From positions 1,883-65,882 of the forward strand of contig CAZBKZ010000007.1 in NCBI GenBank assembly GCA_964492615.1: 64,000 bases of DNA, in the 5' to 3' direction. Of the stretch, positions 22,653 to 55,814 are shown one piece after another. The position numbers were made by a program, and so were the translations under genes. This stretch comes from an uncultured Syntrophomonadaceae bacterium. GTDB lineage: Bacteria > Bacillota > Dethiobacteria > DTU022. The notes under the pieces were generated by a model. That model was not told the DNA's origin. It searched no databases and saw nothing but the letters and a program-made list of their open reading frames with translations. Position 1 is the stretch's first letter, and every line of letters starts with the position of its first letter.

Positions 22653-23051
22653 AATGTCACTCCTTTTTCGGTTTCGGAATGGTACGCAGAATTTTTTTCG
22701 ATTATCGTGGAAATCAAATATTGTCTAATAGTATAACATAATCCTATATCTATAATAGGCTTCTATTTATTCTGTAAAAAACGCCTAAAAATAGTTATTC
22801 TAACCACCCGAGCCAATAGAAAAATAAATTGTAATTGATTCATCCAGCCTCGAGGAAGTGTGCTTTTATATAATGATTACTTGTCCCTACCCTCTCCTGT
22901 AAAGTATCAATTCCTGCTAGGAATTAGCTCAGTAGCTTTAACCTGCCTTTTGACAATGATCAACCTGAGAGCTTATAATACTAATTAATAATATTTATTA
23001 TTCGGGTACCTGCATTGCATCCATATCATATTTGAATATCACCAAGGCGGG

Positions 23052-25715
23052 ATGAACTTGGATATTGTGAAGACAAAGATTTCCCCCCCTGTCAAGGATG
23101 CAACATTCCTGGAAAGACATAACCTTATTTCCAGGTTAAACCAATGGCCGGACAAGAAGCTTACTCTGATTTCGGCTTCCGCTGGCAGTGGTAAAACCAG
23201 CCTGGTTAGTATGTGGATCCACAAGCTGATAAGCAATAAAGCTGACTGTAACGTTGCCTGGTATACCATTGATAAACACGACAACGATCCAGTTCGTTTT
23301 ATCCGTTATTTACTTTTTTCGCTACAGGAAGCTGGATACTGCGGTTTTAGTGACAGACTTAACAGTTTCTCGGAATTGCACAACATGCACCTTACCGAAA
23401 CCATGGCTTATATTGTCAGTTTACTCATAGACAACGATGACAATACTCCCCTTATTATTGTTCTTGATGATTACCAGACTATATACTCCCAGATAATACA
23501 TGAAGGAATAAATTTTTTATTGCGCTACCTTCCTTCTCACATCCATATAGTCATTTTAACTCGTAATGACCCTCCCTTGAACCTATCTTCACTGAGAGTA
23601 AAAGATCAGTTAATAGAGATCCGAACAGAAGATTTAAACTTTGATTATACTGAAAGCGAAGTATTTCTCAATAAACATCTACAGAATGACCTTGACCAGG
23701 AAACTATTGCCATGTTGCATAGGAAAACTGAAGGTTGGATAACAGGTCTTCAACTAACAGCATTATCTTTACGCAATAATAAAAAATCAAATAACCTTCA
23801 GTTGAATGAAGGAAACCATTTGATTGTCGATTACTTAATGGAAGAGGTTTATTCACAGCTTTCTGAAAAAATGCAGTCATTCCTTCTTCAAACTTCCATT
23901 TTAAGTCGATTTACTGTTTCTTTATGTGAATATGTTACCGGAATAGAAGAGAGCTACGAATTAATTGAGGCGCTCAGACGAGACAATCTTTTCATAGTAC
24001 CACTTGATCACGATGGGGAATGGTTCAGGTACCAAAATCAATTTTCTTATTTTTTACAGAGAAGGCTTCCTATAAATAACCAGGATAAAATGTGTGAGTT
24101 GCATACCAGAGCAGCCAACTGGCACTATAAAAAAAGACTTCGTCATGAGGCTTTTGATCATGCTGTTTCATCTCAAAATCCTGAATTAATTAATAAACTT
24201 GCGGAGGGTTATGTTGAAGAGCTATGGATAGCCGGTGAACATGCCCTCTTAATGGAACGCATGTCGCAAATCCCGGAGCCGGTAATGGAGAAAAATGCTC
24301 ATTTACGATTATTTTGGGCTTTGTTACGAATGGATTATGGGAAAATAGATACAAAACTACTAAAAACAGTTTTTTCCGAAAGCGCGAATAGCTTTTCAAG
24401 CAAAGAACTGGGTATGCTTGAAACAATCAGGGCTTCTTACGGCAACATTATTCAGAAATCAGAGATCATCAAAAGACATGCATCTTCGGCTATTGAACAT
24501 TTCAGTCGTTCTAATCCTGTATGGCAGAACAACGCCATATGTGTTCTTGCCCGGAATTATTATCTTTCAGGTGACCTGCAAGAAGCAGAAAAATACTTCC
24601 GTTTCGCATATCGTGAATCAATCTTAAATAGAAGTAGAAATATTGACTATCAGGCAGCATTTCATCTTGCCGATACCCTTCGGTCACAAGGCAGGTTCAA
24701 GGAAGCAAAAACACTCTGTCTTGAAAAATTGAAAGAAATAGAAAGCTGTGGCCTCTACCAGTTATTATACTCTGGTAGTTTTTACGTTGTCATGGGTGAA
24801 ATTTCCTGTGAAGAAAACGATATTAAATCGGCGCTTACCTATGGAGTGAAAAGTATAAAATTAGCAGAACAAAGAAACAACAGTCTCTCTCTGTGCATAA
24901 GCTACAAAAAACTGCTTAACACTTATATATCTATTAGAGATTACGATAAGATCAAAACCATATTAAATAAACTTCTTTCTTTAAAGAATAACACCTTTCT
25001 TCCTTCATGGATTGAAACAACTTTTCGCCTTGCTCAATCTGTTTTATATATACTGGATGAGAAAAACGATGAAGCGATCCAGGTTCTTCAACCGCCAAGT
25101 ATAAACAATAATTCAACCACAAAATTAACTAACGAAGACATAAGGGAATTACTATTCCTCTCTCGCCTGTATCTTCAAACCGGCAACCCCGGCAAGGCCG
25201 AACCTATCATTAAGAAGCTTAAGTTCAGACTGGCGAAAAATAACCGCTGGACATCATATCTAAATTGCCTTATTAATGAAGCTGCATACTGGGAACAGAT
25301 GGGAAATGAACAAAAAGCAGAAGAATGCGTTTGTGAAGCTCTGGAACTTGGTTTCCAAAAAGAATACTTGCGGACTTTTATCAATGCAGGCCCATTGCTG
25401 CAGTACAGGATGAGCAAGTTGAACCGAATGAATAAGCTTAGCAATTATGGTAAGAACATCTTAAATTATATTGAAACAGATCTATCTTCCAGAGCTGATT
25501 GCATTAACACCAACACTCAACTGGATCCACTCAGCCCAAGAGAATACGAGATCCTTAAGCTTTTACCCACCCAGTTATCCTACCCTGAAATTGCGGACCA
25601 CCTTTACATTTCCTATAGCACTGTTCGTTCACATGTAAAAAATATATACATGAAGCTAAATGCACACAGCCGCCTTGAAGCAGTAAATATTGGTCGCGCG
25701 CGCGGTTTAATCTAA
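23052..25715 (+). CDS. MalT-like (STAND ATPase-TPR-LuxR) transcriptional regulator
   Basis: TKISPP, SAGSGKTS, LDDY, TEGW, C-terminal 'LSPREYEIL...TVRSHVKNIYMKL' LuxR HTH. Confidence 0.9.
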   Translation: MNLDIVKTKISPPVKDATFLERHNLISRLNQWPDKKLTLISASAGSGKTSLVSMWIHKLISNKADCNVAWYTIDKHDNDPVRFIRYLLFSLQEAGYCGFSDRLNSFSELHNMHLTETMAYIVSLLIDNDDNTPLIIVLDDYQTIYSQIIHEGINFLLRYLPSHIHIVILTRNDPPLNLSSLRVKDQLIEIRTEDLNFDYTESEVFLNKHLQNDLDQETIAMLHRKTEGWITGLQLTALSLRNNKKSNNLQLNEGNHLIVDYLMEEVYSQLSEKMQSFLLQTSILSRFTVSLCEYVTGIEESYELIEALRRDNLFIVPLDHDGEWFRYQNQFSYFLQRRLPINNQDKMCELHTRAANWHYKKRLRHEAFDHAVSSQNPELINKLAEGYVEELWIAGEHALLMERMSQIPEPVMEKNAHLRLFWALLRMDYGKIDTKLLKTVFSESANSFSSKELGMLETIRASYGNIIQKSEIIKRHASSAIEHFSRSNPVWQNNAICVLARNYYLSGDLQEAEKYFRFAYRESILNRSRNIDYQAAFHLADTLRSQGRFKEAKTLCLEKLKEIESCGLYQLLYSGSFYVVMGEISCEENDIKSALTYGVKSIKLAEQRNNSLSLCISYKKLLNTYISIRDYDKIKTILNKLLSLKNNTFLPSWIETTFRLAQSVLYILDEKNDEAIQVLQPPSINNNSTTKLTNEDIRELLFLSRLYLQTGNPGKAEPIIKKLKFRLAKNNRWTSYLNCLINEAAYWEQMGNEQKAEECVCEALELGFQKEYLRTFINAGPLLQYRMSKLNRMNKLSNYGKNILNYIETDLSSRADCINTNTQLDPLSPREYEILKLLPTQLSYPEIADHLYISYSTVRSHVKNIYMKLNAHSRLEAVNIGRARGLI

Positions 25716-25735
25716 ATATACCCAAACCTCCTAAC

Positions 25736-25764
25736 AATCTGAAAATACCTCAATTGAGGGATGT
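25736..25764 (+). promoter_or_regulatory. 29-bp operator copy 1 (AATCTGAAAATACCTCAATTGAGGGATGT)
   Basis: Identical to 27394-27422; contains palindrome CCTCAATTGAGG; CATAAT lies 17 nt downstream. Confidence 0.75.
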
Positions 25765-25824
25765 ATCAGATAAGTATCAGGCATAATCTGTTAACAAATG
25801 ATACCACTAGGAGGCGTAATAAAA

Positions 25825-26742
25825 ATGCAAGATAAATACTCTCACCTGGTTAAGCCACTTTTAGTTCAACCCCCCCCGGAAAACCTCTACACGGAAACCC
25901 GAGTTTGGATGGAAGGAAAAGATCTTGAAGGTTTTAATGCCCACTTTTCATATGGATTTATTAAAAATCCATCTACTTTTCACCCTGTAGAAGGCTCTAT
26001 TGTTCATCCGTTTGATGAATGCCTTGTTTTTGTAGGCACTAAAAATGACGATTTACTTTACCTGGGCGCAGAAATATCAATCACGCTCGGAGATGAACAA
26101 GAGGAATATACTTTTTGTAAACCGTCCGTTGTTGTAATACCTAAAGGAATGCCTCATGGCCCTGTTACAGTTAAAAGTATAGATCGACCAATCGTACATT
26201 ACAGCATTGGCCTCGCCCCCGAATATAAAGCAGAAATAATTAACAATAAAACTATTGCTGCCAAGACTAACAGCAATAAATACAGCCATCTGATCAAAAC
26301 AATCAAACCTTTAGAAACATTGGATCCTGAAGGAAACCCAAGGAATCCTCAAGTAGGTCAATTGGGACCAGGAAACGCTGATCAGATAATGTGGGTTTAC
26401 GGAGAAGACCTTGAAGGGCTCGAAGTTAATTTCACATGGGGTTTTTATTCTCAGTGCGGTATCTGGCATCGAGGTGGTACAGCACATACACATCCTGAAG
26501 AAGAAATTTTAGTTTTTCCCGGTTTGAACCCTGATGATCTTAATGATTTCGGGGCAGAATTGGAAATTGCCCTGGGATACGAATTTGAGAGGCACATCAT
26601 CAATAGCCCTACCGTCGTTATCTGCCCTCAGGGCTTTCCTCACAACCCAGTCGTAGCAAGATGGGTAGATAATCCTTATGGATTTATAGTCTGCTGCCTG
26701 AGTGGCGAACATGATTCGCCTTGGGTAGATATCAAGGAATAA
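25825..26742 (+). CDS. Uncharacterised bicupin-like protein (two internal repeats)
   Basis: Repeats begin 'KYSHL'; motifs HPFDE...PKGMPHGP and HTHPEEE...PQGFPHNP; AGGAGG RBS. Confidence 0.7.
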   Translation: MQDKYSHLVKPLLVQPPPENLYTETRVWMEGKDLEGFNAHFSYGFIKNPSTFHPVEGSIVHPFDECLVFVGTKNDDLLYLGAEISITLGDEQEEYTFCKPSVVVIPKGMPHGPVTVKSIDRPIVHYSIGLAPEYKAEIINNKTIAAKTNSNKYSHLIKTIKPLETLDPEGNPRNPQVGQLGPGNADQIMWVYGEDLEGLEVNFTWGFYSQCGIWHRGGTAHTHPEEEILVFPGLNPDDLNDFGAELEIALGYEFERHIINSPTVVICPQGFPHNPVVARWVDNPYGFIVCCLSGEHDSPWVDIKE

Positions 26743-26773
26743 ACAGCTTTTATTATGATTGGAGGGTTACTAT

Positions 26774-27223
26774 ATGAGTAAATCACTTTATGAGGACTAT
26801 ATCCTCAGAGATATTCAGCTTCACGGACATCCACATGAAGACGATGTAGAATACCCGGTAATGGCTATGAAAACACTTACAGACTACGGAAATCACGGGT
26901 GCGCCTTAAGCTGGTGGCCAATTAGTAAACCTATGGCTATGGTAAAAGATACTCACTCTCATGACTTTGATCAGTATTTAATGTTTATTGGTGGTGACCT
27001 TACAAACATGAATGAGCTGGGTGGTGAAGTAGAACTGACTATTGGGCTTCCAGGGAAAGCACTTGAAACCATTACATTTACAAAAGCCACCACTTTTTTT
27101 GTGCCAGCCGGCATGTTACATGGACCACTTTACTTTAAAGAAATAAAGAATCCCCTGAAGCCAATATTGTTCCATGATTTCTTCTTTGCCGGAGAATATA
27201 GTAGAAAAGTTGAATCTGTTTAA
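26774..27223 (+). CDS. Uncharacterised monocupin-like protein of the same family
   Basis: HSHDFDQYL..IGG, LGGEVELTIG, PAGMLHGP; GGAGG RBS. Confidence 0.7.
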   Translation: MSKSLYEDYILRDIQLHGHPHEDDVEYPVMAMKTLTDYGNHGCALSWWPISKPMAMVKDTHSHDFDQYLMFIGGDLTNMNELGGEVELTIGLPGKALETITFTKATTFFVPAGMLHGPLYFKEIKNPLKPILFHDFFFAGEYSRKVESV

Positions 27224-27393
27224 GCAATCCCGGTTTATTCCTGATTACTGAATAAAGTAGTATATTTTTCAACATAACCCTAAGAACGTGCAATCCGGCC
27301 TTACATTGAAGTCATAGTATAAGCGGAAGTGTAAATTAAGCATAAGGTTATTTGTTGTTTAAGATATTTAAAAATGATTACTGTTCTTTCAAT

Positions 27394-27422
27394 AATCTGA
27401 AAATACCTCAATTGAGGGATGT
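27394..27422 (+). promoter_or_regulatory. 29-bp operator copy 2
   Basis: Exact copy of 25736-25764; AATAGT (-10-like) at the same 17-nt distance. Confidence 0.75.
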
Positions 27423-27482
27423 GCTGAATCAAAATTAACAATAGTTTTATAGTAAGTCATGATACAAGGAGGATCTAAAAGC

Positions 27483-28418
27483 ATGGATAAAGAGTATTCC
27501 CATTTGATTAAACCCTTGGTTGTTAAAAGCCCTCCTGAAGGATTATACCCAACGGAGCCCCGCTTTTGGATGGAAGGAAAAGATCTAGAAGGTTTTCAAG
27601 GCCATTTTTCATACGGTTTTTATAAAAAACCGACCACATTACACCCTACAGAGGGATCAGTTGTTCACCCCCATGACGAATGTCTGGTATTTGTAGGAAC
27701 AGATCACACTAATATACTGTATTTAGGTGCTGAGGTATCGATAGAACTCGGAGAAGAACGGGAAGAACACATTTTTAACGAGCCTACAGTGATAGTCATC
27801 CCAAAAGGTCTTCCTCACGGACCAGTAAAAATCAACAAAGTTGAAAAACCAATAATACATTATAGTATAGGTTTAGGACCCGAATATAAAGCAGAAATAC
27901 TTTATGAAAACGCCACTAAACCTAAAACAAATAGTAATAAATATAGCCATTTGGTCAAAAAATTCATTTCGCATCCTGAACCAGGATCTTCAATGGCTGA
28001 TATTGCAGACGAGAAAGGAGTAATGCATGCTTCTACAGGCGGAGTAGGCCCTGGTAATGGCGATGAAGTAGTCTGGGTCTTTGGTAAGGATCTTGAAGGC
28101 CTTGAAATCAACTTCAGCTGGGGTTTTTATACCCAGTGCGGTAAATGGCATAGAGGAGGTGAAGCTCACACCCACCCCGAAGAGGAGATCCTGGTCTATG
28201 TTGGACTTGATCCCGAAAACATCGATTACCTTGGAGCAGAGCTGGAACTTGGCATGGGGAAAGATTATGAACGTCATATCTTTAACACTCCCACTGTGGC
28301 GATTTGCCCACAAGGATTCCCACACCTTCCGCTTATAACAAGATGGGTTGACAAGCCATATGGTTTCTTCGTTTGCTGCCTGAGCGGAGACCATGACTCG
28401 CCCTGGGTGGAGGCTTAA
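27483..28418 (+). CDS. Uncharacterised bicupin-like protein, paralogue of 25825-26742
   Basis: Shared blocks WMEGKDLEGF, DECLVFVG, QCGxWHRGG.AHTHPEEEIL, CCLSG.HDSPWV. Confidence 0.72.
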   Translation: MDKEYSHLIKPLVVKSPPEGLYPTEPRFWMEGKDLEGFQGHFSYGFYKKPTTLHPTEGSVVHPHDECLVFVGTDHTNILYLGAEVSIELGEEREEHIFNEPTVIVIPKGLPHGPVKINKVEKPIIHYSIGLGPEYKAEILYENATKPKTNSNKYSHLVKKFISHPEPGSSMADIADEKGVMHASTGGVGPGNGDEVVWVFGKDLEGLEINFSWGFYTQCGKWHRGGEAHTHPEEEILVYVGLDPENIDYLGAELELGMGKDYERHIFNTPTVAICPQGFPHLPLITRWVDKPYGFFVCCLSGDHDSPWVEA

Positions 28419-28481
28419 TATCGTGAGATTGCTTATTATGGTTTTTCACGTTTACAAATTCATACCATCGGAGGTAAAGTT

Positions 28482-29576
28482 ATGAAAAAAAGCACTTTAA
28501 TGTATATTGCTTTAATCTTAATTATGGGCTTGTTATTTATCAGCGGTTGTTCAGGAGACACTTCAACACCTTCCGAATCAGAAGCTGAAAGTGAAGGCCC
28601 TGAGGAGATTGCTGAAGGACCAACAGCAGATGAACCCATTAATCTTGTTTTTGCAACATGGGAGCAGCCTACTACCGCGCTGGGTGTAATCTATCAAGAA
28701 GCAGCTGATCGCATTGAAGAAGAAACAGGTGGCAGAGTAGTAATGGAATGTTATTTCTCCGGTTCGTTACTGGAATACGCAGATGTGTTCCCCGGCGTTG
28801 CCTCTGGAAGGGCAGACATTGCCACAGCAATTTCATCTATGGCAACGGGAAAACTTAACCAGATATTTGATCAACCATACATAGGTATTCCTGATCAGGT
28901 AGAAGCAACAAAGGCATTTAAGGAGCTTTTAGTAACACGTCCGGAATTTCAGGAGGAAATGGAGCAGAACAACACACGGTGGATCAGCTTGCGAGCTATG
29001 CCCCCATACTGGTTACATACTGTTACTAAGCCAGTCAGAGTTCCTGATGATCTGAGGGGAACTAAGATAATGGCCAGTGGAGACACAATTGTTGATGTTT
29101 CTGGCGGTGCCTCCATTAATGCAGCTCCACCAGATATGTACATGAACCTTGAAAGAGGTCTCGCTGACGGACAAATTACCCACTGGAATGCAATAGTAAC
29201 CTTTGGCTTAAAAGAGCTATTTAATTACCATACCAGTTTCGGAGGTCCTCAAACCGGCCTGAAAGCCAGTGCAATCGGCTGGGTTATCAACCTTGACACC
29301 TGGAACAGCCTGCCCTCTGATATACAGGATATAATTGTTGAAGTATATGAATGGGCTGATATTGAACTAGGCAAACATGCTGAAGGCCAGGATGCTATGG
29401 CATGGTCCCGTGAGCAAGGTCATGAATTCATCGAGGTTACCGGTGAAGATCTCATACCCTGGGAAGAAGTTGCACAGCCAACAGTAGATAAATGGATCGA
29501 GGACGCAACAGCTGCAGGTTGGCCCGCCGCTGAAATCTGGGATTATTTTGGCGAATTAATTGAAAAACACAGGTAA
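28482..29576 (+). CDS. dctP: TRAP transporter substrate-binding lipoprotein DctP
   Basis: Lipobox 'FISGC', acidic linker, 'GRADIA', 'PDDLRG', 'YMNLERG..DG', 'WNSLP.D.Q'. Confidence 0.85.
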   Translation: MKKSTLMYIALILIMGLLFISGCSGDTSTPSESEAESEGPEEIAEGPTADEPINLVFATWEQPTTALGVIYQEAADRIEEETGGRVVMECYFSGSLLEYADVFPGVASGRADIATAISSMATGKLNQIFDQPYIGIPDQVEATKAFKELLVTRPEFQEEMEQNNTRWISLRAMPPYWLHTVTKPVRVPDDLRGTKIMASGDTIVDVSGGASINAAPPDMYMNLERGLADGQITHWNAIVTFGLKELFNYHTSFGGPQTGLKASAIGWVINLDTWNSLPSDIQDIIVEVYEWADIELGKHAEGQDAMAWSREQGHEFIEVTGEDLIPWEEVAQPTVDKWIEDATAAGWPAAEIWDYFGELIEKHR

Positions 29577-29652
29577 AATGAATATTTTATTATACAAAAT
29601 AATATGATTTATTTAATAAATAACAGTTAAAAATCATTTATTAAAGGCTTGG

Positions 29653-29691
29653 GACTGCAAGCGCAGCAATGATACATCTGCGCTTGCAGTC
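29653..29691. repeat. 14-bp perfect inverted repeat between dctP and dctQ
   Basis: GACTGCAAGCGCAG-N11-CTGCGCTTGCAGTC; no T tract. Confidence 0.8.
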
Positions 29692-29747
29692 TATAGAAAT
29701 AGCACATACCCATATTACATCTCTCTCCAATCATTCAGGATTAAGGG

Positions 29748-30242
29748 GTGATAAATTTGAGAAAAGCTGAAAAACTTATCTACTGGATAAGTGAAACATC
29801 AGCGATTATAGCAACAGTAGTGTTAATCCTCCTGATGCTCATTACCGTCAGCGATGTATTAATCCGCACTTTTTTTAACGAAACTATTCTTGGAATTGTT
29901 GAACTTACCGAAATGATGATGCCTGTTATAGGCTTTCTCGGTATAGCTTGGTGCGCTTTGCAGGGTGGTCATGTTGCAGTAGATATCCTGATTAGTTCGC
30001 TGTCTGAAGGAAAACAAAAAGTTTTTGATATTTTAAATTACCTGTTAGCAATTGTGATTACTTTTTTAATTGGTTGGCATACTCTGCAGCAGAGTTTCTT
30101 TATTAAACAGATTAATGTTGTAACTGATAGCCTGGACCTTCCAAAATACCCATTCATGATCATCGCCGCAGTAGGTTTCTTCTTAATGACTCTTGCTGTA
30201 TTTATCCTATTATTAAAAACATTTGAGCGGAGGGAGCACTAA
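29748..30242 (+). CDS. dctQ: TRAP transporter small permease DctQ
   Basis: 4 TM segments, 'DVLIR', 'GGHVAVD'. Confidence 0.85.
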   Translation: MINLRKAEKLIYWISETSAIIATVVLILLMLITVSDVLIRTFFNETILGIVELTEMMMPVIGFLGIAWCALQGGHVAVDILISSLSEGKQKVFDILNYLLAIVITFLIGWHTLQQSFFIKQINVVTDSLDLPKYPFMIIAAVGFFLMTLAVFILLLKTFERREH

Positions 30243-31537
30243 TGTCACCTGAAATGATCGGCGTTATTGGAATAATAATTCTTGTAATAATGTTATTCAT
30301 GCGATTATGGATTGGCATTATACTTGCTGTAATTGGTATGGTTGGCTATGCCCTCCTAACTAATTGGGATAGATCTCTTTTAATGATCGGCACTGAACCA
30401 TTTAGTCATGCCGCTACATATGCGATATCAGCAATGCCGCTTTTTATATTAATGGGCATGGTCGTATCTGTTACCGGGATTGCCGGCGATATGTATCAGG
30501 CTGCCCGTAACTGGATTGGTCATGTACGTGGCGGGTTAGCCATGGCCACTGTAATAGCCTGTGGTGGTTTTGCTGCAGTAACCGGTTCAAGCATGGCCAG
30601 CACTGCTACAATGGGAAAAGTTGCTTATCCTGAAATGATAAAATATAAATACAATGAGCGTCTGGCTGCAGGCTGTATTTCGGCTGGAGGCACCGTTGGT
30701 ATACTTATTCCTCCTAGTATAGGTTTTATTATATACGGACTCTTCACTGAAAATTCTATTGGCAAACTATTCATGGCGGGTATACTGCCTGGCTTAAGTG
30801 AAATACTTTTTTATATAATAACTATCTTTATTGTGTGCCGCTTTAAACCACATTATGGACCACCGGGACCAAAAGTAGTTTTAAAAGAAAAAATAGTTTC
30901 ACTCAGGGGCGTCTGGTCAATAGCAGTCCTTTTTATATTGGTTATTGGTGGCATATATGGAGGATTTTTCACTCCAACTGAAGCAGGTGCTATAGGCGCT
31001 TTTGGAGCTATTGTCATTGCCCTAGCCACTCGCAGAATAACGATCAAAGGTTTAATGAGAACTTTTCGCGAAACCGCACAAACAACTGCTATGATCATGA
31101 TTATGATTGCCGGCTCGATGATCTTTAACCGCTTTATCACTGTAAGCAAGTTACCGGTCGCTATGGGTGATTTCGTAGCCGGCCTTGATGTCTCTCCTAT
31201 TATGATCATGGCCGGTATTGTTCTACTTTACCTTGTAATAGGATGTTTTGTAGATATTATTGCAGCGATCGTCTTAACTTTACCTGTGATATACCCAATT
31301 GTGATGATTTTAGGTTTTGATCCATTTTGGTTTGGTGTTATTATGGTGAGATTAATGGAAGTAGGCGCCATTACTCCCCCCATGGGCCTTAATATTTTTA
31401 TTCTTGCCAAGACTATTAACATACCTGTTGGAACTATATACCGAAGTGTTTTTCCTTTTGTTGTAGCAGATTTTGTGAATCTGGCATTTTTAATTGCCTT
31501 TCCTCAAATCTCTCTCTTCCTGGTTAACCTTATGTAG
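30242..31537 (+). CDS. dctM: TRAP transporter large permease DctM
   Basis: PLFILMG, GILIPPS, FTPTEAG, ITPPMGLN. Confidence 0.92.
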   Translation: MSPEMIGVIGIIILVIMLFMRLWIGIILAVIGMVGYALLTNWDRSLLMIGTEPFSHAATYAISAMPLFILMGMVVSVTGIAGDMYQAARNWIGHVRGGLAMATVIACGGFAAVTGSSMASTATMGKVAYPEMIKYKYNERLAAGCISAGGTVGILIPPSIGFIIYGLFTENSIGKLFMAGILPGLSEILFYIITIFIVCRFKPHYGPPGPKVVLKEKIVSLRGVWSIAVLFILVIGGIYGGFFTPTEAGAIGAFGAIVIALATRRITIKGLMRTFRETAQTTAMIMIMIAGSMIFNRFITVSKLPVAMGDFVAGLDVSPIMIMAGIVLLYLVIGCFVDIIAAIVLTLPVIYPIVMILGFDPFWFGVIMVRLMEVGAITPPMGLNIFILAKTINIPVGTIYRSVFPFVVADFVNLAFLIAFPQISLFLVNLM

Positions 31538-31592
31538 TTATTAAAATATATTTGAAGATAAGAACATTGGTAAAAGATGTAAAGGAGTAAAC

Positions 31593-32735
31593 ATGATGAA
31601 ATATAATAAATTCAACAATATGGAATGGGTGGCATCAGCTCTGGGTTTTAGCGCAGACTCCCTTCCTGTACCTAAGCAAAAACTAAAAACCACATCTCAT
31701 CAGGTAATCGAATTACTCCAGTATTGTCTTGATAAAGGGGTTAACTATCTTGATATCGGTTATCCCTACCATCTGGGAGAAAAAAAGTACATGTCCGGTA
31801 TCATCAGTCAAGTAATTAGTGACTTTCCGAGAGATTCAGTAAAAATTGCCTTAACCATTCCCTCTTACTCGATAAAAACAGCCAATGATTTTGAGCTATA
31901 TCTAAATATGCAGTTAGAATGGTTAAAAATTGAAAAAGCAGATTTTTGCCTGCTGGGCATGTTGAACCGCGATAATTGGCCTGTTTTAAATAAGCTTAAT
32001 GTTTTGGAGTGGGTTGAAAAAGCACGGTCAGATGGACGCATTGACAAAATAGGCTTTTCTTTTCATGATCACTTTCAAATTCTTAAAGAGATAATTGCTG
32101 CCTACGACCATTGGGCAATTAGTCAGTTTCAATATAGTTATGTGGACGAAAATCATGATCCTGGAAGTAGCGGAATTGCATATGCTAGCAGTAAAGATTT
32201 GGCTGTTGTTATCAGTGAACCGCTACACAAAAAAAGACTGAGTAATAGCTTACCTTCTGAAGTTTTAAAACTGATCAGTTCTTTTCCTGCATACCATTCG
32301 CCCACTACCTGGGCTCTGCAATGGGTTTGGAATCATCCAGAAGTTTCAGTTGTTCTAGGTGAAATGTCCAATATAACCGAGGCCGAAGAACATATTTCCG
32401 CAGCTAACACGTTTAATCCGAACAGTTTAACAATCAAAGAACTGATAGCATATGAGAAAATCAAAGATTATTTTAAATCTAAAATAATTGTTCCCTGCCC
32501 CTCATGCCGTCCTTGTATGCCTTGCCCTCAAGGCATCGACGTTCCACGAATATTCGAGATATACAATGATGCTGCCATATATAATGATTATAGGACAGCC
32601 CGAAAGATCTACGCTGATGAAAATCATAGAATTGAGCTGTGCAATGAGTGTGGGAGTTGTGAAAAATCCTGTGCAAAGAGGCTGACAATAATTCAATACC
32701 TGAAACAAGCACAAATTGCGCTTGAAAACGATTGA
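31593..32735 (+). CDS. Aldo/keto reductase-fold protein with C-terminal 4Fe-4S dicluster (degenerate active site)
   Basis: SALGF, D..YPYH, IGFSFHD, QYSY.D; CPSCRPCMPCP and CNECGSCEKSC. Confidence 0.8.
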   Translation: MMKYNKFNNMEWVASALGFSADSLPVPKQKLKTTSHQVIELLQYCLDKGVNYLDIGYPYHLGEKKYMSGIISQVISDFPRDSVKIALTIPSYSIKTANDFELYLNMQLEWLKIEKADFCLLGMLNRDNWPVLNKLNVLEWVEKARSDGRIDKIGFSFHDHFQILKEIIAAYDHWAISQFQYSYVDENHDPGSSGIAYASSKDLAVVISEPLHKKRLSNSLPSEVLKLISSFPAYHSPTTWALQWVWNHPEVSVVLGEMSNITEAEEHISAANTFNPNSLTIKELIAYEKIKDYFKSKIIVPCPSCRPCMPCPQGIDVPRIFEIYNDAAIYNDYRTARKIYADENHRIELCNECGSCEKSCAKRLTIIQYLKQAQIALEND

Positions 32736-33148
32736 AACATATTTTGAAATAACAGAGTTTATAAGCTGGCCTTTCACTGCCAAAGAATATTGCATTCAAG
32801 CGATAATCCCACTAAAGCTTTCTTATGTGCAGTTAGATCGCCCACCGTAATAGCGGAATAATGGCACCATCTTTTATCAATATTTTTTCTTTAGGCAATC
32901 TGGATTGTTTGTGAATTATATAAATGACGACAAGTAAGCAGCATGAAGTGTGGATGTTGAAATGCCAAACCAAAAGCCTGTTTTTCATCTCGTAACTGAA
33001 AAACAGGTACATCTTATCACAGTTCTAACATTCCATATGTAGATCTTTTGAGAATTAGTGATGTTTTAAAATATTTCTGTAACGGCCTCACCGCATCAAG
33101 TAATTTAACCGTTTCCGGATGTTATGAATATTAAGTAGCTGATCTCTT

Positions 33149-35103: not shown

Positions 35104-36384
35104 ATGTATACCAGCGACCTGGACCTAGTTGGACTGGCACTCGAAAATCAGACCCCGCCTGTATGCTCTTACAAGCGGGGAAAAGTTCTATACTGGCAGG
35201 GTGACCCGGTAGAAAATTTATATGTAATAGATAAAGGAGCAGTAAAAATATCTTCCATCTCCGGCACGGGACGGATTTACTCCCACGGGATTTTAGGAAC
35301 CGGTCATTTAATTGGCGCTACAGATTACTTCCTCGATGGAATTCATGAAACAACTGCAGAAATATGTACTGAACAAACCCGGTTGTTCACTTTTACAGTT
35401 AAACAGTTTCAAAACCTCATAAATGGTAACCCAAATTTTTCTGCTATTGTTATGCGCGAATTGGCTAAAGAAGCGAAAGTGCATCTATGCAAAGCACAGG
35501 AATTAAGTTTTCTCGATGTGCAACAGCGCTTAATGCACAGTCTGATATCCCTGGCGGGAGAACACGGTTTAAAAACTGAGGAAGGCGTTGAAATTGGAGT
35601 TAATATCACCCATGAAGATATTGGGGAAATGATCAATGCAAACCGCACTACAATCACACTATGCCTGCAGGAACTGAGAAAACTTGGCTATATCAGGAAT
35701 GAAGGTAGACGGATTATCCTGATCCCTATTGAACATATGGACCTTCTCGATCAGTTGAGTGAAGCAATTCTAACAGGTGAAATGGGTGAAGCCGCCGACC
35801 TGGCTTCAGAAGCGGTCAAGGAAGGAATAGATCCGGTCATTGTTTTAAACTCGCTGTTAAATGGAATGAAAAGGATAGACCGCAAGTATACACAGAGACA
35901 ATTGGACATCAATGATATCATCTGGTCTTCCATGCACATGAAAGATGCTTTACCGGTTATCGAAACAGCGATTCAAAAGGAAGGCCTTAAACTCAACCAC
36001 CTCGAAAGAATTGTGTTGGGAACAGTCCAGGGTGATATACATGATATTGGTAAAACCGTGGTTTCTATGCTGTTCAGGGCACGTGGATTCGAGGTTGTTG
36101 ACCTTGGAGTAGATGTGCCTGCCAGGCAGTTTGTTGAAGCAGTAAAAAAATACAGACCGGGCATCCTGGCCATGTCTGCTTTTCTTACCTCTACCCAGTG
36201 CGAAATGAAAAAAGTTATTGATAAATTAAATAATATGGCATTACGCAACGGGGTTAAAATAATGATTGGGGGTGCTTCTGCTACTTCCAGGCTTGCCAGA
36301 GAAATAGGGGCAGATGGACATGCCCCCGATGGCAGGGGGGGTGTCGAATTAGCTTGGGGCTGGTGCAGTAACCCCGGCAATTAA
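35104..36384 (+). CDS. CRP/FNR-family regulator fused to a corrinoid cap and B12-binding domain
   Basis: cNMP domain (QGD..E.LY.I..G.VKI), HTH 'THEDIGEMINANRTTIT', then 'GTVQGDIHDIGK', 'SAFLT', 'MIGGA'. Confidence 0.88.
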   Translation: MYTSDLDLVGLALENQTPPVCSYKRGKVLYWQGDPVENLYVIDKGAVKISSISGTGRIYSHGILGTGHLIGATDYFLDGIHETTAEICTEQTRLFTFTVKQFQNLINGNPNFSAIVMRELAKEAKVHLCKAQELSFLDVQQRLMHSLISLAGEHGLKTEEGVEIGVNITHEDIGEMINANRTTITLCLQELRKLGYIRNEGRRIILIPIEHMDLLDQLSEAILTGEMGEAADLASEAVKEGIDPVIVLNSLLNGMKRIDRKYTQRQLDINDIIWSSMHMKDALPVIETAIQKEGLKLNHLERIVLGTVQGDIHDIGKTVVSMLFRARGFEVVDLGVDVPARQFVEAVKKYRPGILAMSAFLTSTQCEMKKVIDKLNNMALRNGVKIMIGGASATSRLAREIGADGHAPDGRGGVELAWGWCSNPGN

Positions 36385-36431
36385 TACTTCAGCCGGGAAT
36401 CAAAAACGCCTTTACTAAATATAATAATTTG

Positions 36432-36455
36432 AAGCGGCTAAAAAAGCCGCTTTTT
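36432..36455 (+). terminator. Rho-independent terminator after the regulator
   Basis: AAGCGGCT-AAAAA-AGCCGCTT followed by Ts. Confidence 0.7.
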
Positions 36456-36456
36456 G

Positions 36457-36499
36457 TTGTTGTCCAGACAACAAACGTCATAGCTGGTTAAGGTAAAAT
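36457..36499 (+). promoter_or_regulatory. CRP/FNR-type operator (TTGTTGTC-CA-GACAACAA) with -10 TAAAAT
   Basis: Perfect 8-bp inverted repeat, TGTTG-N6-CAACA core, centred ~41 nt upstream of the inferred +1. Confidence 0.7.
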
Positions 36500-36527: not shown

Positions 36528-37724
36528 ATGCCTAACCTGATATTAACTATGGTGAAAGCCCTGGCTAAAAAAAAGCTACAGTTTGGTAAGCTCAGCGGAC
36601 TTGAACGATTCATGTTGGCACAAGCCGGTCTGCCGGATCGCATTCCTACAATGCTGGCTGCAACAAACATTGAGCCCTACATGCTGAATCCGCAATACAA
36701 CTGGAAATCAACAGTGGAAAGCTTGGAAGCCAATATTGCTCTTGCCGATCAGGTCTGCGCGCAGTTTGATTGTGACCTGGTTTTTGTGCCGGTATGGATG
36801 GGAACAATGGGTATGGGAGCAGCTGACCTGGGTACTGAATATAAGATTTCTAAGAAAAGGGTTCCCTACCCTGTTGCTTACCCGATAAAAAGCATGGAAG
36901 ATATCGTGAATATTAAACCACCTGAAGAAGTTTCGGGCTATTTGAAGATGTTTTTTGATGTTACCCTGGAGATTCAAAAGCGCCATCCCGAACAATTTTC
37001 TCCTCTCGCACTTGATGGCCCCTGGGATCTGGCCATGCTGCTAAGGGGAGACGACAAGCTTCCATTCGATATGCGCATTCACAAAGATTACATGGAGACT
37101 GATGATCCGGTAAGGAAAGAAAAGATAAGAAAGCGCGGCAATCCCGAGATTTACCCGGCTATTATGAATCTGACTACCCGTCTGGTAATCAGGCATTTTG
37201 AGCTGGCTAAAAAACACGGCCTCCCTTTGTTCGGAGCATCTTTGGTAGACCAGTATGCAGCCAGCCCGATTTTAAGCCGCAATGATTATGTCAGGTATGT
37301 TCTGCCCTATATTGAAAAGGTTTGGCTCTACCAAAACAAAAAACTGGGCATTCTTGCTCCCTGTGCTTCTCCGATGGAAATGAAAAAAATCCTTGAAACA
37401 GAACCTGCAGGTATAAACCACCAGATATCATGGTCAAATTACATCTTTCCAACCACTCCGGAAGGTGTAACACTGCCTGAATATGACAAACCGGTATTTG
37501 AACTGGCAAAAATACATAAAAAATGTTTTATGTATATCGTTCATGGCAAATTCCTGCGGGACGCATATGAAGATGAAATCGAGGCGCTGATCAAGCGGAT
37601 ATGCACCCTGGCAACAAAAATGCGAACATCGATTACAATCTCTCTCAGCGCAATTACGCCGGACACCGACCTGGATAAGATCCATAAAGTCTTTTATCTG
37701 GTTAAGAAATACGGGAGGTATTAA
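36528..37724 (+). CDS. UroD/MtaA-fold corrinoid methyltransferase-like protein
   Basis: PDRIP, A.DLG, 'GPWDLAMLLRG', D..AS, Y..YVLPY, terminal 'KKYGRY'; adjacent to a corrinoid protein. Confidence 0.7.
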   Translation: MPNLILTMVKALAKKKLQFGKLSGLERFMLAQAGLPDRIPTMLAATNIEPYMLNPQYNWKSTVESLEANIALADQVCAQFDCDLVFVPVWMGTMGMGAADLGTEYKISKKRVPYPVAYPIKSMEDIVNIKPPEEVSGYLKMFFDVTLEIQKRHPEQFSPLALDGPWDLAMLLRGDDKLPFDMRIHKDYMETDDPVRKEKIRKRGNPEIYPAIMNLTTRLVIRHFELAKKHGLPLFGASLVDQYAASPILSRNDYVRYVLPYIEKVWLYQNKKLGILAPCASPMEMKKILETEPAGINHQISWSNYIFPTTPEGVTLPEYDKPVFELAKIHKKCFMYIVHGKFLRDAYEDEIEALIKRICTLATKMRTSITISLSAITPDTDLDKIHKVFYLVKKYGRY

Positions 37725-37725
37725 A

Positions 37726-38352
37726 ATGCTTAAATCAATTACCGAGGCTGTTCGCGATGGAAATACTTATGATATAGAGGAACTGATCCAGGCTGGCCTG
37801 GATGCAGGGGAAAAACCTTTTGACATACTCCAAGCCATGATGAAAGGGTTGGAGCAGTGTGGAGACAAATTTGAGAATGGAGAGTTTTTTTTACCAGAAC
37901 TGATTATTGCAGGCGATACTTTTAACAATGGAATAGCTATAATCAAGCCGCAACTGGGCCAGGCGACCTTAGGGCAGGCGGGAAAGGTAATTCTGGGCAC
38001 TGTTTCCGGGGATGTCCACGATATTGGAAAGAATCTGGTTGGATTTTTACTTAAAAGTTCCGGCTTTGAAGTTATTGATATCGGTACAGATGTCAGTACT
38101 GAATCCTTTGTTGCTGCTGTTAAAAAACATGAGCCTGATATTCTCGGAATTTCAGCTTTACTGACTACCACTATGCTCAGCATGGGAGAAATAATTATAG
38201 CGCTGGACGAAGAAAACTTACGTAATAAAACCAAAGTAATTATCGGCGGAGGACCGGTTTCAGCTCGTTTCGCCGAAGAAATAAACGCTGATGCATATGC
38301 ATCTGATGCAGCAGAAGGCATCCGAAAAATAAGAACTATGATTGCTAATTAA
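37726..38352 (+). CDS. Corrinoid (cobalamin-binding) methyl-carrier protein, MtaC/MttC family
   Basis: FFLPEL cap motif, GDVHDIGKN, SALLTTT, IIGGG. Confidence 0.92.
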   Translation: MLKSITEAVRDGNTYDIEELIQAGLDAGEKPFDILQAMMKGLEQCGDKFENGEFFLPELIIAGDTFNNGIAIIKPQLGQATLGQAGKVILGTVSGDVHDIGKNLVGFLLKSSGFEVIDIGTDVSTESFVAAVKKHEPDILGISALLTTTMLSMGEIIIALDEENLRNKTKVIIGGGPVSARFAEEINADAYASDAAEGIRKIRTMIAN

Positions 38353-38825: not shown

Positions 38826-41264
38826 ATGACAAAGCATGCGTTGACGGTCAAATTGGTGCTGTCGAGAACGCATTTTTTGATTTTGTTCCTCCTTGCCCTG
38901 CTCCTAATGCCAGCTGTGGTTTTTGCTGAAGGCGATGCTGTTCCGGAAGCAGGTGACAGCAGCACGCAGAGTGAAATAGAGAGCTATGGTGAAACTTCCA
39001 CAGCCGGCGGTTTTGACAGCCCCGTTGATGCTGACCAAAACGACACTTTTAATATTGATAACCCTGAACCTTCTACAACCGAAACTGATTGCAGCCCGGC
39101 AGCTTCTGACCCGGGTGACACTTTTGATACTGACAGCCCGGAAACCACTTTTTTAGAAGAAACGCCCCCGCTTGACAGCGATACTACAAGTTCAGAAGAC
39201 TCTATTGCACCCAACCTTGACAGAGAGCAAAATTCTGCTGGGCAAAACAGTTCCGGTAACTCCTACATCGCAGAAGTAACCTCAGACTTAATAGTGGCAA
39301 CAGGCAAAGATGAAACAGCCTTCACAATGCAGTTTACCGAAGTTGGCCACCACACCCCACTTGGTTCAGTAGAACTGACCCTGCCAGAGAATTTTTCCAA
39401 CATGGACCTGGTAGATGGCTCAATTACCACGCCAGAGGATAAAAACTGGTTTGGCAGTGTCGTTGACCTGGTCTTAAAGCTCTGGGCCGCAGATGAAAGC
39501 AGCTACCTGGGCTACGGCGAGACGGTTTCCGTTACCTTCACTGCCACAACGCCGGAAACACCAACAGGATATACATTTGCCACTAAAGCCTGGACTGATA
39601 ACAGTGCCGGTGATTGTATTGACGGCTTCGGCAATGTTACAAACCGCAATAACATGGCTGAAGGGCACAGTGATCCGCTGGTGTGGATTCTGCACAAGAA
39701 CAGCCCGACGCAAATATCAACAGCCGCTATGCTTAATGGAGCCGTTCGAGCTGACCTTGCCGGCAACTTCATCCAAACAGCGCATATCGATCTGAGCAGC
39801 TATTCCAACTGGGAGCCAATTGGGACCACTGGTAATAGTTTCACCGGCAGCTACGACGGAAATGGTTATACAATCAGCAACCTCACCATTAATCGGCCTG
39901 ATGAAGATAACATCGGTCTTTTCGGTCATATTAGCGGAGGAGCCACTTTAAATAATATCAGCCTGTTGGATGTTACTGTAACCGGCAAGGCAAAAGTTGG
40001 TGGACTGGTCGGGCTTAACTACATGGGCACAATCACCGACTGCTACGCTACTGGCTCTGTAACCGGCAATGAACAAGTTGGCGGACTGGTCGGAAGTGAC
40101 TTAGGCAATATGACTAACAGCTACGCCACGGGTAATGTTGTGGGCAATAATACGGTCGGCGGGCTGGTTGGGCATGTCGGCATGGGCGCAATCACCACCT
40201 GCTACGCTACTGGCTCTGTAACCGGAACCGGAACAAATGTCGGCGGACTGGTCGGGTTGAATTATGGAATAGTCACCAACAGCTACGCCACCGGCCTTGT
40301 AACCGGGAGCGGTAATAATGCTATGGTCGGCGGTTTGGTCGGACATAACTCCCATGGCACTATCAGCAATAGCTACGCCACCGGGGCTGTAAACGGAACC
40401 GGAACCGGAGCTATGGTCGGCGGTTTGGTCGGACGCAACACCCTTGAAACAGGAACCGGCACGGTCAGCAACAGCTACGCCACCGGCCTCGTAACCGGAA
40501 CCGGAGCCGGAGCCATGGTTGGCGGTTTGGTCGGACATAAACTTAGTGGCACTATCACCAACAGCTACTGGAACACTGATTCTTTCGCGGGTTCCGGGAT
40601 TGGTAGCGGTTCTGAAGATGATGACAGTGTGGAAGGCAAAAGCACAGGCGAACTGCAAACTATCAGCTTTCATCAAAACACTCTCGAATGGAACATCGCC
40701 GGTGTTGACGGTTCCTACCCGGTGCTGGGCTGGCAGGTCAACTGGACAAATAACATCTGGTACATGGGCACCCCGCCCAGCAACAACAGCGGTGGTAACA
40801 GTGAACCGGTCTCTGTTGACGGAGGTTCCAATATTTTCTCTTTCCCTGTCCCATTGCCCACCTTACCAGCTGGTAACCTGACCAACATCCCCGGGCCAAC
40901 GGCTAATGCAATTATTACCCCAGCCTTCGTCACCGGCGGCAGCGCGACAGACCTGGTTAAAGCTATCGCAGCCTACAACCAGGCTAAGCAGAGCTATGAA
41001 GCTAACTATGGCAGCATGAACGCTGCAGAAATTGCTGTGGCCGAAGTTGAACTGGCCATTGCAAATGCAGCGATAATGGCTCTGGAGTTCAAGCTTGCTG
41101 CCGATAACGGACAGGCCATTGATCTTGCCGCTCTGGTGGCCGCTTACAATGCGGCCAGGGAGATGCTTAACAACTACCGCGGCCTGCTGACAGCAGATCA
41201 GTTTGCCGCTGCAGAAGCCCTGCTTAAGGCCATCACTGCGGTAATTGTCAAGTTTAGAACCTGA
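38826..41264 (+). CDS. Secreted/surface protein with GLUG-motif repeats
   Basis: Signal peptide ending 'VFA', acidic S/T-rich region, 'WEPIG..F.G.YDGNG', seven GGLVG...YATG repeats; GGAGG RBS. Confidence 0.85.
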   Translation: MTKHALTVKLVLSRTHFLILFLLALLLMPAVVFAEGDAVPEAGDSSTQSEIESYGETSTAGGFDSPVDADQNDTFNIDNPEPSTTETDCSPAASDPGDTFDTDSPETTFLEETPPLDSDTTSSEDSIAPNLDREQNSAGQNSSGNSYIAEVTSDLIVATGKDETAFTMQFTEVGHHTPLGSVELTLPENFSNMDLVDGSITTPEDKNWFGSVVDLVLKLWAADESSYLGYGETVSVTFTATTPETPTGYTFATKAWTDNSAGDCIDGFGNVTNRNNMAEGHSDPLVWILHKNSPTQISTAAMLNGAVRADLAGNFIQTAHIDLSSYSNWEPIGTTGNSFTGSYDGNGYTISNLTINRPDEDNIGLFGHISGGATLNNISLLDVTVTGKAKVGGLVGLNYMGTITDCYATGSVTGNEQVGGLVGSDLGNMTNSYATGNVVGNNTVGGLVGHVGMGAITTCYATGSVTGTGTNVGGLVGLNYGIVTNSYATGLVTGSGNNAMVGGLVGHNSHGTISNSYATGAVNGTGTGAMVGGLVGRNTLETGTGTVSNSYATGLVTGTGAGAMVGGLVGHKLSGTITNSYWNTDSFAGSGIGSGSEDDDSVEGKSTGELQTISFHQNTLEWNIAGVDGSYPVLGWQVNWTNNIWYMGTPPSNNSGGNSEPVSVDGGSNIFSFPVPLPTLPAGNLTNIPGPTANAIITPAFVTGGSATDLVKAIAAYNQAKQSYEANYGSMNAAEIAVAEVELAIANAAIMALEFKLAADNGQAIDLAALVAAYNAAREMLNNYRGLLTADQFAAAEALLKAITAVIVKFRT
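39990..40570 (+). repeat. Intragenic tandem repeats encoding GLUG units
   Basis: Recurring 'gctacgc(c/t)ac(c/t)gg...gtaaccgg...gtcggcgg..tggtcgg' blocks. Confidence 0.8.
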
Positions 41265-41406: not shown

Positions 41407-41568
41407 CATGAGAATTGTCAAACTTTCGGACATGCCGCTATCTCAGTTAAGAAAAAACTCATAAGAACCTTCGTTAAAAGTATGATCCTTGACCCTAAAA
41501 AGCAAGAAGTCAGGGTTACTTACTACCCTGACTTAGTGCAAACTATTGGTGTCGGGAGGGGGACTTGA
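41407..41568 (+). pseudogene. C-terminal remnant of a probable large serine recombinase, reading into the tRNA 3' end
   Basis: Start-less frame 'VKKKLIRTFVKSMILDPKKQEVRVTYYPDLVQTIGVGRGT*' resembles recombinase C-termini. Confidence 0.5.
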
Positions 41569-41631
41569 ACCCCCATGGTTATTACCACACGGCCCTCAAC
41601 CGTGCGCGTCTGCCAATTCCGCCACCCCGAC
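41547..41631 (-). tRNA. tRNA-Leu(GAG)
   Basis: GTCGGGG/TCCCGAC acceptor stem, encoded CCA, D-arm GGCGGAATTGGCAGACGC, anticodon arm CACGG-TTGAGGG-CCGTG, long variable arm, GGTTCAAGTCC. Confidence 0.96.
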
Positions 41632-55570: not shown

Positions 55571-55601
55571 CGGCAGGATATTAATATATATTCCGCGCCG
55601 C

Positions 55602-55754: not shown

Positions 55755-55814
55755 CGGTTAAGAGAATTATAACACATTTTCTACATATTTCAAATATAGT
55801 AAGCTTGTGCGGAT

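Follow-up and report, generated by a model that had tools for sequence, protein, structure and literature searches.

A 64,000-nucleotide stretch of DNA from an uncultured Syntrophomonadaceae bacterium (GTDB lineage Bacteria; Bacillota; Dethiobacteria; DTU022; NCBI GenBank assembly GCA_964492615.1, contig CAZBKZ010000007.1, positions 1,883 to 65,882 of the forward strand), hereafter the window, encodes a CRP/FNR-type transcription factor fused to a corrinoid-protein module, an architecture pointed out in an earlier note made from the sequence alone and confirmed here. The fused proteins are a real, widespread, conserved and uncharacterised bacterial family whose members always head a corrinoid methyl-transfer operon, not always the same one, and the junction between regulator and operon carries a constant palindrome, a conserved predicted operator that is newly found here. 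The explanation that we find best overall, and hold with slightly more belief than doubt, is that of a one-component CRP/FNR factor reading the state of its own corrinoid.

Domain architecture and predicted fold

All four domains of the regulator exceed the curated cut-offs of Pfam: a cNMP_binding-like beta-barrel (PF00027; E = 3.2e-12, 46.7 bits against a cut-off of 27.5), a winged helix-turn-helix (HTH) of the Crp type (HTH_Crp_2, PF13545; E = 6.6e-12), with no match to the MerR HTH, a four-helix cap (B12-binding_2, PF02607; E = 1.4e-8) and a B12-binding Rossmann domain (PF02310; E = 3.2e-21). The corrinoid module following the HTH wing comprises 215 residues, and its B12 motifs, D311-I-H313-D-I-G316, S358-A-F360-L361 and G389-G390, fit the spacing of the canonical DxHxxG-x41-SxL-x26-28-GG pattern. 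DIHDIG and GG, both named in the earlier note, are intact, and the S-x-x-L that it also listed fits only loosely, the SxL position reading S-A-F in the window and SAL in the family consensus.

An AlphaFold2 model of the regulator, built on a 93-sequence alignment, has a mean predicted local distance difference test score (pLDDT) of 85.7 and a predicted template modelling score of 0.81, the latter suggesting a defined arrangement of the domains. The barrel (strands in residues 20-98, pLDDT about 80-94) and the B12 module are modelled with confidence, the hinge (residues 125-135) and the HTH more weakly (pLDDT 47-77); helices at residues 110-127, 136-154 and 170-193, followed by wing strands at 197-206, have the order of a CRP-like helix and then a winged HTH. 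No solved chain found with Foldseek spans both halves, which match separately, the N-terminal half to CRP, GlxR and NtcA, and the C-terminal half to MttC with a TM-score of 0.84. By sequence, the nearest PDB entries of the N-terminal half are GlxR (E about 1e-20), Mycobacterium tuberculosis CRP, NtcA and Escherichia coli CRP, with E-values of 1e-17 to 1e-21 against the GlxR, M. tuberculosis CRP and NtcA structures, and those of the C-terminal half are the Moorella corrinoid protein 1y80 (4.9e-42), then MttC (7xcn), a Desulfitobacterium hafniense protein (4jgi), MtmC (3ezx) and MtaC (2i2x).

A conserved family of fused regulators

Searched against 5.8 billion clustered proteins, the regulator had 594 matches at E <= 0.001 among 8000 scored candidates. 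Among the best 120 clusters of these 594, HTH_Crp_2 occurs together with B12-binding in every one and all four domains in 114; the 120 clusters come from four independent sources (NCBI, JGI, ENA and Logan assemblies), and the sequence of the regulator in the window was found on 12 contigs. An assembly artefact, which the earlier note had listed among the outcomes that would refute its reading, is very unlikely and was excluded on this domain search. Few of the homologues carry a name: some, from Anaerolineae/Anaerolineales and Dethiobacteria, are called "cobalamin-dependent protein", and others are mis-annotated, for example as "MtbC1". In an exhaustive search over 50%-identity representatives, the fused forms amount to 15 full-length and 3 partial clusters, next to which come stand-alone corrinoid proteins with about 40% identity to the C-terminal half; unfused CRP-type proteins, 40-45% identical to the N-terminal half, have the same recognition helix.

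Conservation extends over both halves. The [DE]xHxxG motif is kept in 130 of the 131 fused members fetched, and D311, H313, G316, S358, G389 and G390 are invariant in the alignment of 93 family members; in P0137, a distant member, both the Asp and the GG motif have been lost. In the recognition helix, A179, N180 and R181 are invariant and T182, T183 and I184 are conserved at 90% or more; ANR[TSA]TI is near-invariant despite varying downstream genes, and the family also conserves EGRR..I.P.EH, the linker that joins the HTH wing and the cap.

Species-representative genomes yielded 35 loci, 15 of them with a fused regulator, in Chloroflexota metagenome-assembled genomes (MAGs) and two "Bacillota" MAGs. 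In one Chloroflexota MAG (L019), two fused regulators that are paralogues of each other are separated by about 5 kb (L019:874-2142 and L019:5932-7221); each has a separate operator (TGTTGTGCAGGCAACA and TGTCGTCCAGACGACA) and a different type of operon. A Bacillota MAG carries a degraded regulator (L021:6001-6801), with an in-frame stop within the conserved "LDVQQR" and without a recognisable B12 Rossmann domain. In three MFD MAGs (L018, L020 and L022) the methyltransferase or the regulator is broken into two to four overlapping open reading frames (ORFs), probably through assembly frameshifts, operator and gene order being intact.

A predicted operator at the junction of regulator and operon

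Directly 3' of the regulator stop codon, the pattern TGTYG-N6-CRACA occurs in 14 of 14 cases, that is, in the window and after the 13 regulators of the 12 loci that contain a whole regulator and downstream DNA, and it is found nowhere else in the 141,572 bases of these loci. As negative controls for the operator we took 80 stand-alone corrinoid-protein loci returned by a metagenome scan with B12-motif patterns, none of which held a fused regulator; across the 99 loci with a stand-alone corrinoid protein only (665,928 bases), the pattern is present in one (L091). The match in the window is its only one, against 0.20 expected, at least one match being obtained in 17 of 100 shuffles. Three loci stand outside the count: L013 ends at the regulator, L021 has the degraded copy, and L023 provides 116 downstream bases, in which there is no 5-6-5 site. 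This last locus belongs to Thermoflexia and has the most divergent regulator (38% identity); its half-sites, TGTTGCC and GGCAACA, are separated by about 27 bases and reach the next start codon (L023:7218-7334).

When the 14 promoters are aligned on the palindrome, a -10-like hexamer (TAnAAT, CATAAT, TATGAT and similar) stands at a fixed column in 12; the hexamer of the window is one base closer to the palindrome, and that of L016 is ambiguous. With the transcription start assumed 7 bases after the hexamer, the 12 promoters place the centre of the palindrome at an inferred -41.5 (-40.5 in the window). No promoter of the 14 matches TTGACA at more than four of six positions and none has the TTG of that element, the clade of the window having at most two of six matches. 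A centre near -41.5 without a good -35 box is the layout of class II activators such as CRP, FNR, NtcA and CprK.

Over the whole host genome the operator pattern is not enriched (8 sites versus 16 for a reversed control), and only two of the 8 sites are intergenic (36458-36473 in the window and C1:34248-34263), so that the regulator looks local rather than global, and it very probably acts on the predicted operator of the window. The other intergenic match, TGTCGATCAAGCGACA, has a 150-residue ORF on the minus strand starting about 65 bases away. A link between the regulator and the neighbouring methyltransferase system is supported at the level of sequence. Autoregulation was considered and rejected: with a weight matrix made from the 14 sites, the 350 bases upstream of each of 16 regulator genes gave no score above background (best score 9.1, background 95th percentile 12.0, window 7.6 and 5.8).

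Table 1 The regulator and the operon that follows it, in positions of the window
Feature	Position	Strand	Remarks
Regulator gene	35104..36384	+	Intact ORF, 426 residues; sensor barrel, dimer helix, winged HTH, cap and Rossmann domain
cNMP_binding-like beta-barrel	35167..35424	+	Residues 22-107; Pfam PF00027
Crp-type winged HTH	35524..35724	+	Residues 141-207, recognition helix ANRTTIT; Pfam PF13545
Four-helix corrinoid cap (B12-binding_2)	35743..35961	+	Residues 214-286; Pfam PF02607
B12-binding Rossmann domain	36007..36321	+	Residues 302-406; Pfam PF02310
Intrinsic-terminator-like hairpin	36431..36453	+	9-pair stem (5 G-C), loop of 5, tail TTGTTGTTGT; T-run 3' of the regulator
Predicted operator	36458..36473		TGTTGTCCAGACAACA; 5-6-5 palindrome; perfect 8+8 inverted repeat over 36457-36474
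Predicted -10 box of the methyltransferase operon	36494..36499	+	TAAAAT; operator centre at about -40.5
URO-D-superfamily methyltransferase-like protein	36528..37724	+	398 residues; Pfam URO-D, E = 2.4e-9
Stand-alone corrinoid protein	37726..38352	+	208 residues, DVHDIG; Pfam cap and Rossmann domain; TIGR02370, E = 1.4e-58

The corrinoid module compared with methyl carriers

The B12 module of the regulator appears far nearer to methyl-carrier proteins than to CarH. Among NCBIfam models, it matches MtgC (3.1e-49) and TIGR02370 (1.6e-46) much better than CarH (1.2e-7), the MtgC models giving 167 bits against a cut-off of 370 and the CarH model NF052513 31.4 bits against a cut-off of 400. In a comparison of 130 regulator modules with 107 stand-alone corrinoid proteins, the Rossmann consensus is near-identical in the two sets (GTVxGDIHDIGK, SAL.T.T, GG, EIGADGY), and the cap differs, with "VGEKF ... 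GEYFLPEL" in the carriers versus "VDRRY ... GEIDLPDV" in the regulators; position 259 is D in 94% of the regulators versus G in 95% of the carriers. The differing cap positions presumably correspond to residues that face the upper ligand of the cobalt in methionine-synthase structures. In a quick tree of 41 rows, the adjacent and other stand-alone carriers form one clade without regulator modules (SH-aLRT 98), and the regulator label changes three times, one of these changes involving a probable fragment.

The sensor barrel

Alignment of the regulator to cAMP-bound GlxR and M. tuberculosis CRP shows that G-E-L has become G-A-T and R-T-S has become E-T-T. The Glu of G-E-L and the Arg of R-S/T are, we take it, the residues that hold cAMP, and with both contacts replaced (Glu by Ala, Arg by Glu) the barrel, as judged from this alignment, is not a cAMP pocket. 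Family members conserve the motif that stands in their place, "GAT..LDG.HETTAE". An FNR-type cysteine cluster was not found in the regulator, which has Cys at positions 21, 88, 129, 187 and 421; C187, in the recognition helix, is the only one conserved in the alignment of 93 members.

Downstream operons

As the earlier note had stated, genes for a methyltransferase and a corrinoid protein lie directly 3' of the regulator; Pfam places the first product in the URO-D family and identifies the second as a corrinoid protein. Across loci, the genes upstream of the regulator are not conserved and those downstream fall into three arrangements. Type A, in nine cases (the window, L011, L012, L018, the first copy of L019, L020, L022, L024 and L040), consists of the regulator, a URO-D-like methyltransferase of about 400 residues and a corrinoid protein. 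Type B, in four (L014, L015, L017 and the incomplete L016), has the regulator, a RACo reductive activase and a corrinoid protein, then one or two URO-D methyltransferases, a pterin-binding methyltransferase and DUF1638, or variants thereof. The second copy of L019, a single case, is followed by a corrinoid protein and a URO-D protein.

The 242 homologues of the 398-residue methyltransferase-like protein are named only "uroporphyrinogen decarboxylase family" or "hypothetical", and neither the type A URO-D-like methyltransferase nor the type B enzyme of L014 has a PDB relative by sequence or profile. MtaA-type thiol methylases have a His-Cys-Cys zinc site; no Cys or His is invariant among 59 sequences of the type A family, which argues that this family lacks such a site.

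Proposed mechanism

In the mechanism that we propose, a CRP-like dimer would bind TGTTG-N6-CAACA, with its centre some 41 bases before the adjacent operon starts, and the bound dimer would activate transcription in the manner of class II CRP, FNR and NtcA. The corrinoid module would bind a cobamide in the His-on form through its Asp-His-Ser triad, the four-helix cap lying over the upper face of the cobalt, with the short conserved linker tethering it to the HTH wing. If the upper ligand or the cobalt oxidation state changed (methyl-Co(III) versus Co(II)/Co(I)), the cap would shift relative to the Rossmann domain, as in methionine synthase and CarH, and this shift would re-orient the DNA-binding domain. 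Dimerisation and the coupling of cap and HTH are thus presumed steps of the scheme, and it is reasonably likely that the state of the corrinoid is the signal.

The input that we prefer, a speculative one on which we lean towards doubt, is that the methyltransferase of the operon would methylate the reduced Co(I) corrinoid of the regulator when its substrate is present, so that the pathway would report its own substrate through its own chemistry. Methylation by the operon enzyme would explain why the barrel pocket is conserved despite differing methyltransferases and why the module has stayed so close to real carriers. In its full form, the regulator would act as a pseudo-carrier whose cobalt is methylated by the operon methyltransferase and reset by a methyl acceptor or by side oxidation, which we regard as a shade less credible still. 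Were it true, expression would be set by the flux and the redox health of the methyl-transfer pathway, one regulator family could serve different methyltransferases with an unchanged ligand pocket, the regulator would be the first DNA-binding protein signalled by an enzyme-catalysed change of its bound B12, and AraC-corrinoid fusions would be a second invention of the same principle.

Several observations weigh against this mechanism. Cobamide binding by the regulator is predicted from its motifs, and the Asp-His-Ser triad and carrier-type module, compatible as they are with methylation, would be equally so with sensing of cofactor availability or redox state. The module scores below the TIGR02370 cut-off (158.2 versus 215.3 bits), and it is 33% identical to the adjacent corrinoid protein, from which it is separated into another clade and of which it is not the closest relative; this suggests an old fusion and a module that is no recent copy of its neighbour, and a special pairing of regulator and neighbour is unsupported by their sequence relationship. 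The regulator tree and the operon type also disagree. Since unfused CRP relatives with the same recognition helix exist, the N-terminal half is probably workable without B12, and the true signal may be a separate ligand bound by the strongly conserved "HETTAE" barrel. Finally, that the regulator is an activator is probable from the position of its site alone, and in 8 of the 14 promoters a partial -35 box, cAGACA (4/6), overlaps the right half-site.

Alternative explanations

The last of these points is what a repressor would exploit: bound to the palindrome, which overlaps the -35 position, it would cover the -35 and block RNA polymerase until released by a corrinoid or ligand signal, and in the 8 promoters the cAGACA, with its four matches to TTGACA, lies 17 bases from the -10 box. 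We consider repression rather unlikely given the centre at -41.5 in 12 of the 14 promoters, the lack of the -35 TTG throughout and the at most two matches in the clade of the window. A two-input AND gate would divide the sensing, the barrel binding a substrate or metabolite and the corrinoid module reporting the presence of a cobamide (holo versus apo), so that the B12-dependent pathway would be made only when workable. This resembles the logic of EutR, which has ethanolamine and adenosylcobalamin as joint inputs. It accounts for two sensor domains in one protein and for the strong conservation of a non-cAMP pocket motif, it is the simplest reading for a B12-binding domain, and the unfused relatives, whose recognition helix is the same, point to a barrel that can sense alone. 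The pocket motif, however, is constant across operons whose methyltransferase types are about 24% identical, which fits a common ligand and not varying substrates, and the full Asp-His-Ser triad and near-carrier Rossmann domain exceed what binding needs, though CarH-type sensors keep the His. The host, moreover, has CbiC, CobS and four cobalamin riboswitches; it probably makes a cobamide and already has RNA sensors for its level, so that there is somewhat less need for a protein that senses availability alone, and we give the AND gate a clear minority of our belief.

A redox or oxygen sensor, in which the bound cobalt would report reducing conditions as Co(I)/Co(II)/Co(III) without methylation by a neighbour, is by sequence indistinguishable from the explanation that we prefer, and we judge it quite improbable. 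The family occurs in the MAGs of anaerobes (Anaerolineae, Dethiobacteria, Bacillota), the RACo reductive activase comes first after the operator in type B operons, and CRP/FNR relatives such as FNR and CooA are often redox sensors; against it, there is no FNR-type cysteine cluster and C187 is the only conserved Cys. Also improbable, and to a much higher degree, is a non-binding decoy whose module would dock the methyltransferase, the activase or the corrinoid protein and switch partners: the regulator always adjoins such proteins and P0137 lacks the Asp and the GG motif, and yet the B12-binding motifs are conserved in virtually the whole family, as described above. Light sensing of the CarH/LitR kind, with photolysis of the upper ligand changing oligomer state and DNA binding, is very unlikely, the least credible of all these readings. 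Every alkyl-cobalamin is light-sensitive, and HTH-fused B12 modules are known as photoreceptors (PMC11796333 and PMC8717448); the former gives the adenosylcobalamin cap signature of CarH as GxxW and EH, that is, W131, E141 and H142. These residues have no counterpart in the regulator family consensus, from which the W-x9-EH signature is absent, the CarH model scores far below its cut-off, and neither the 60 best PDB sequence matches nor the listed Foldseek matches include CarH. The targets, in addition, are methyltransferases of anaerobes and not carotenoid or photoprotection genes.

Host genome and surroundings of the locus

The host genome (2.77 Mb, 94 contigs) encodes a single fused regulator and a single type A methyltransferase, together with about 12 corrinoid proteins, three pterin-type MT2 homologues, one RACo and one DUF1638 protein. 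The regulator of the window groups with Chloroflexota copies (tree support 100/100), and at E <= 1e-60 no fused regulator was found in 400 other sampled genomes of the same phylum, 6 of them of the same family; transfer of the regulator between phyla is possible on this distribution. The G+C content of the regulator locus (0.452 against a genome mean of 0.451) gives no sign of transfer. As a lead only, the look-alikes of the host DNA polymerase I are from Bacillota.

A genomic island was considered and rejected, the locus lying at the genome-mean G+C content, with flanks that are GC-rich instead and a GC-poor part at 23-33 kb. In other loci this GC-poor stretch (23000-33000; 0.386-0.40 versus the genome mean of 0.451) is not conserved beside the regulator. 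Its genes encode a MalT/LuxR-type regulator (23052..25715), the TRAP transporter DctPQM (28482..31537) and an aldo-keto reductase (31593..32735) that has a 4Fe-4S dicluster tail, and three further ORFs in it match no Pfam family. On the other side of the locus, a c-di-GMP-II-GAG riboswitch (RF03169; 38695-38778, plus strand; 46.6 bits against a gathering score of 40) marks the end of the methyltransferase operon and lies directly 5' of a gene for an 812-residue GLUG-repeat protein with a signal-like N-terminus (38826..41264). A tRNA-Leu(gag) (41547-41631) and an FMN riboswitch (55598-55756; 92.6 bits) are found on the minus strand, and no B12 riboswitch reaches the gathering score in the window.

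Significance

To our knowledge, all protein regulators described to date that depend on B12 act as light sensors or antirepressors (CarH/LitR, AerR), other B12 sensing being done by riboswitches. The family described here adds a CRP-type regulator, dark and anaerobic, that carries a B12 module of the methyl-carrier type and has a predicted operator and a target operon; with it, sensing of cobamide availability, cobalt redox state or methylation is testable with one protein, a 16-base site and one neighbouring enzyme. It offers a handle on the control of methyl-group metabolism (O-demethylase-like systems) in the little-known Anaerolineae and related anaerobes of digesters and sediments, and possibly a B12-responsive activator part for anaerobic synthetic biology.

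The earlier note knew of no characterised CRP-type B12 regulator, and the full-text literature searched, supplements aside, bears this out: no Crp- or AraC-type regulator fused to a corrinoid module is described there. The available portions of the SignatureFinder and photoglobin papers (PMC8717448 and PMC11796333) report MerR, ANTAR, HTH_17, GAF, DGC and MEDS fusions and none with Crp, and the supplementary architecture tables of both could list a Crp fusion. Neither a Crp- nor an AraC-corrinoid fusion is described in the available portions of PMC9600662, PMC13602510, PMC9768040 and PMC8630106, and the preprint on mlp gene clusters (PMC10418091) deals, in its available portion, with other URO-D methyltransferases and names no such regulator.

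Comparison with known systems

Like CarH/LitR, the regulator joins a DNA-binding domain to a four-helix cap and a B12 Rossmann domain with a His lower ligand, and a change of upper ligand that shifts the cap and alters DNA binding is an idea taken over here. In contrast, CarH/LitR has an N-terminal MerR HTH and is a tetrameric repressor, whereas the regulator has a Crp HTH before the module, is likely an activator at -41.5 and carries a module of the methyl-carrier type. AerR/PpaA, by description, has no DNA-binding domain and acts on CrtJ/PpsR, unlike the regulator with its Crp-type HTH. EutR/PocR and B12 riboswitches similarly tie the expression of a B12-dependent pathway to the cofactor; they are other protein families or RNA and have no corrinoid-protein module.

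With the class II CRP/FNR activators (GlxR, M. tuberculosis CRP, NtcA) the regulator shares barrel, helix and winged HTH, as well as, in its predicted operator, a 16-base 5-6-5 palindrome with the outer TGT/ACA of TGTGA-N6-TCACA. It differs from them in the inner half-site (TGTTG), in the replacement of the cAMP-contacting Glu and Arg by Ala and Glu, in the lack of FNR cysteines and in the corrinoid module itself. CprK is a CRP/FNR activator of corrinoid-dependent reductive dehalogenase genes whose barrel senses an organic substrate and which has no B12 domain. By description it resembles the regulator in its non-cAMP barrel, its corrinoid-enzyme target genes and a palindrome near -41.5, and differs in that the regulator has a B12 domain.

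Carriers of the MtaC type (MtaC, MttC, MtmC, MtgC, 1y80, 4jgi) have the same cap and Rossmann fold, the same DxHxxG-SxL-GG motifs and the same neighbourhood of URO-D and pterin methyltransferases and RACo. The regulator module departs from them in being fused to a transcription factor, in forming a separate lineage in the quick tree, and in its cap, where the G-x-x-F and F-L-P of the carriers are replaced by D-R-R-Y and D-L-P. A parallel in design, a transcription factor joined to a cap and Rossmann domain of the methyl-carrier type, is offered by the AraC-corrinoid fusions, which use another DNA-binding family and another domain order. One of them (P0221, 804 residues) combines GGDEF_2, HTH_AraC, B12-binding_2 and B12-binding and has the canonical VGxxF, FVPE, DLHDVG and SAML, and Atlas clusters of 974 and 52 members combine AraC_binding, B12 and HTH_AraC, most commonly in Bacillota.

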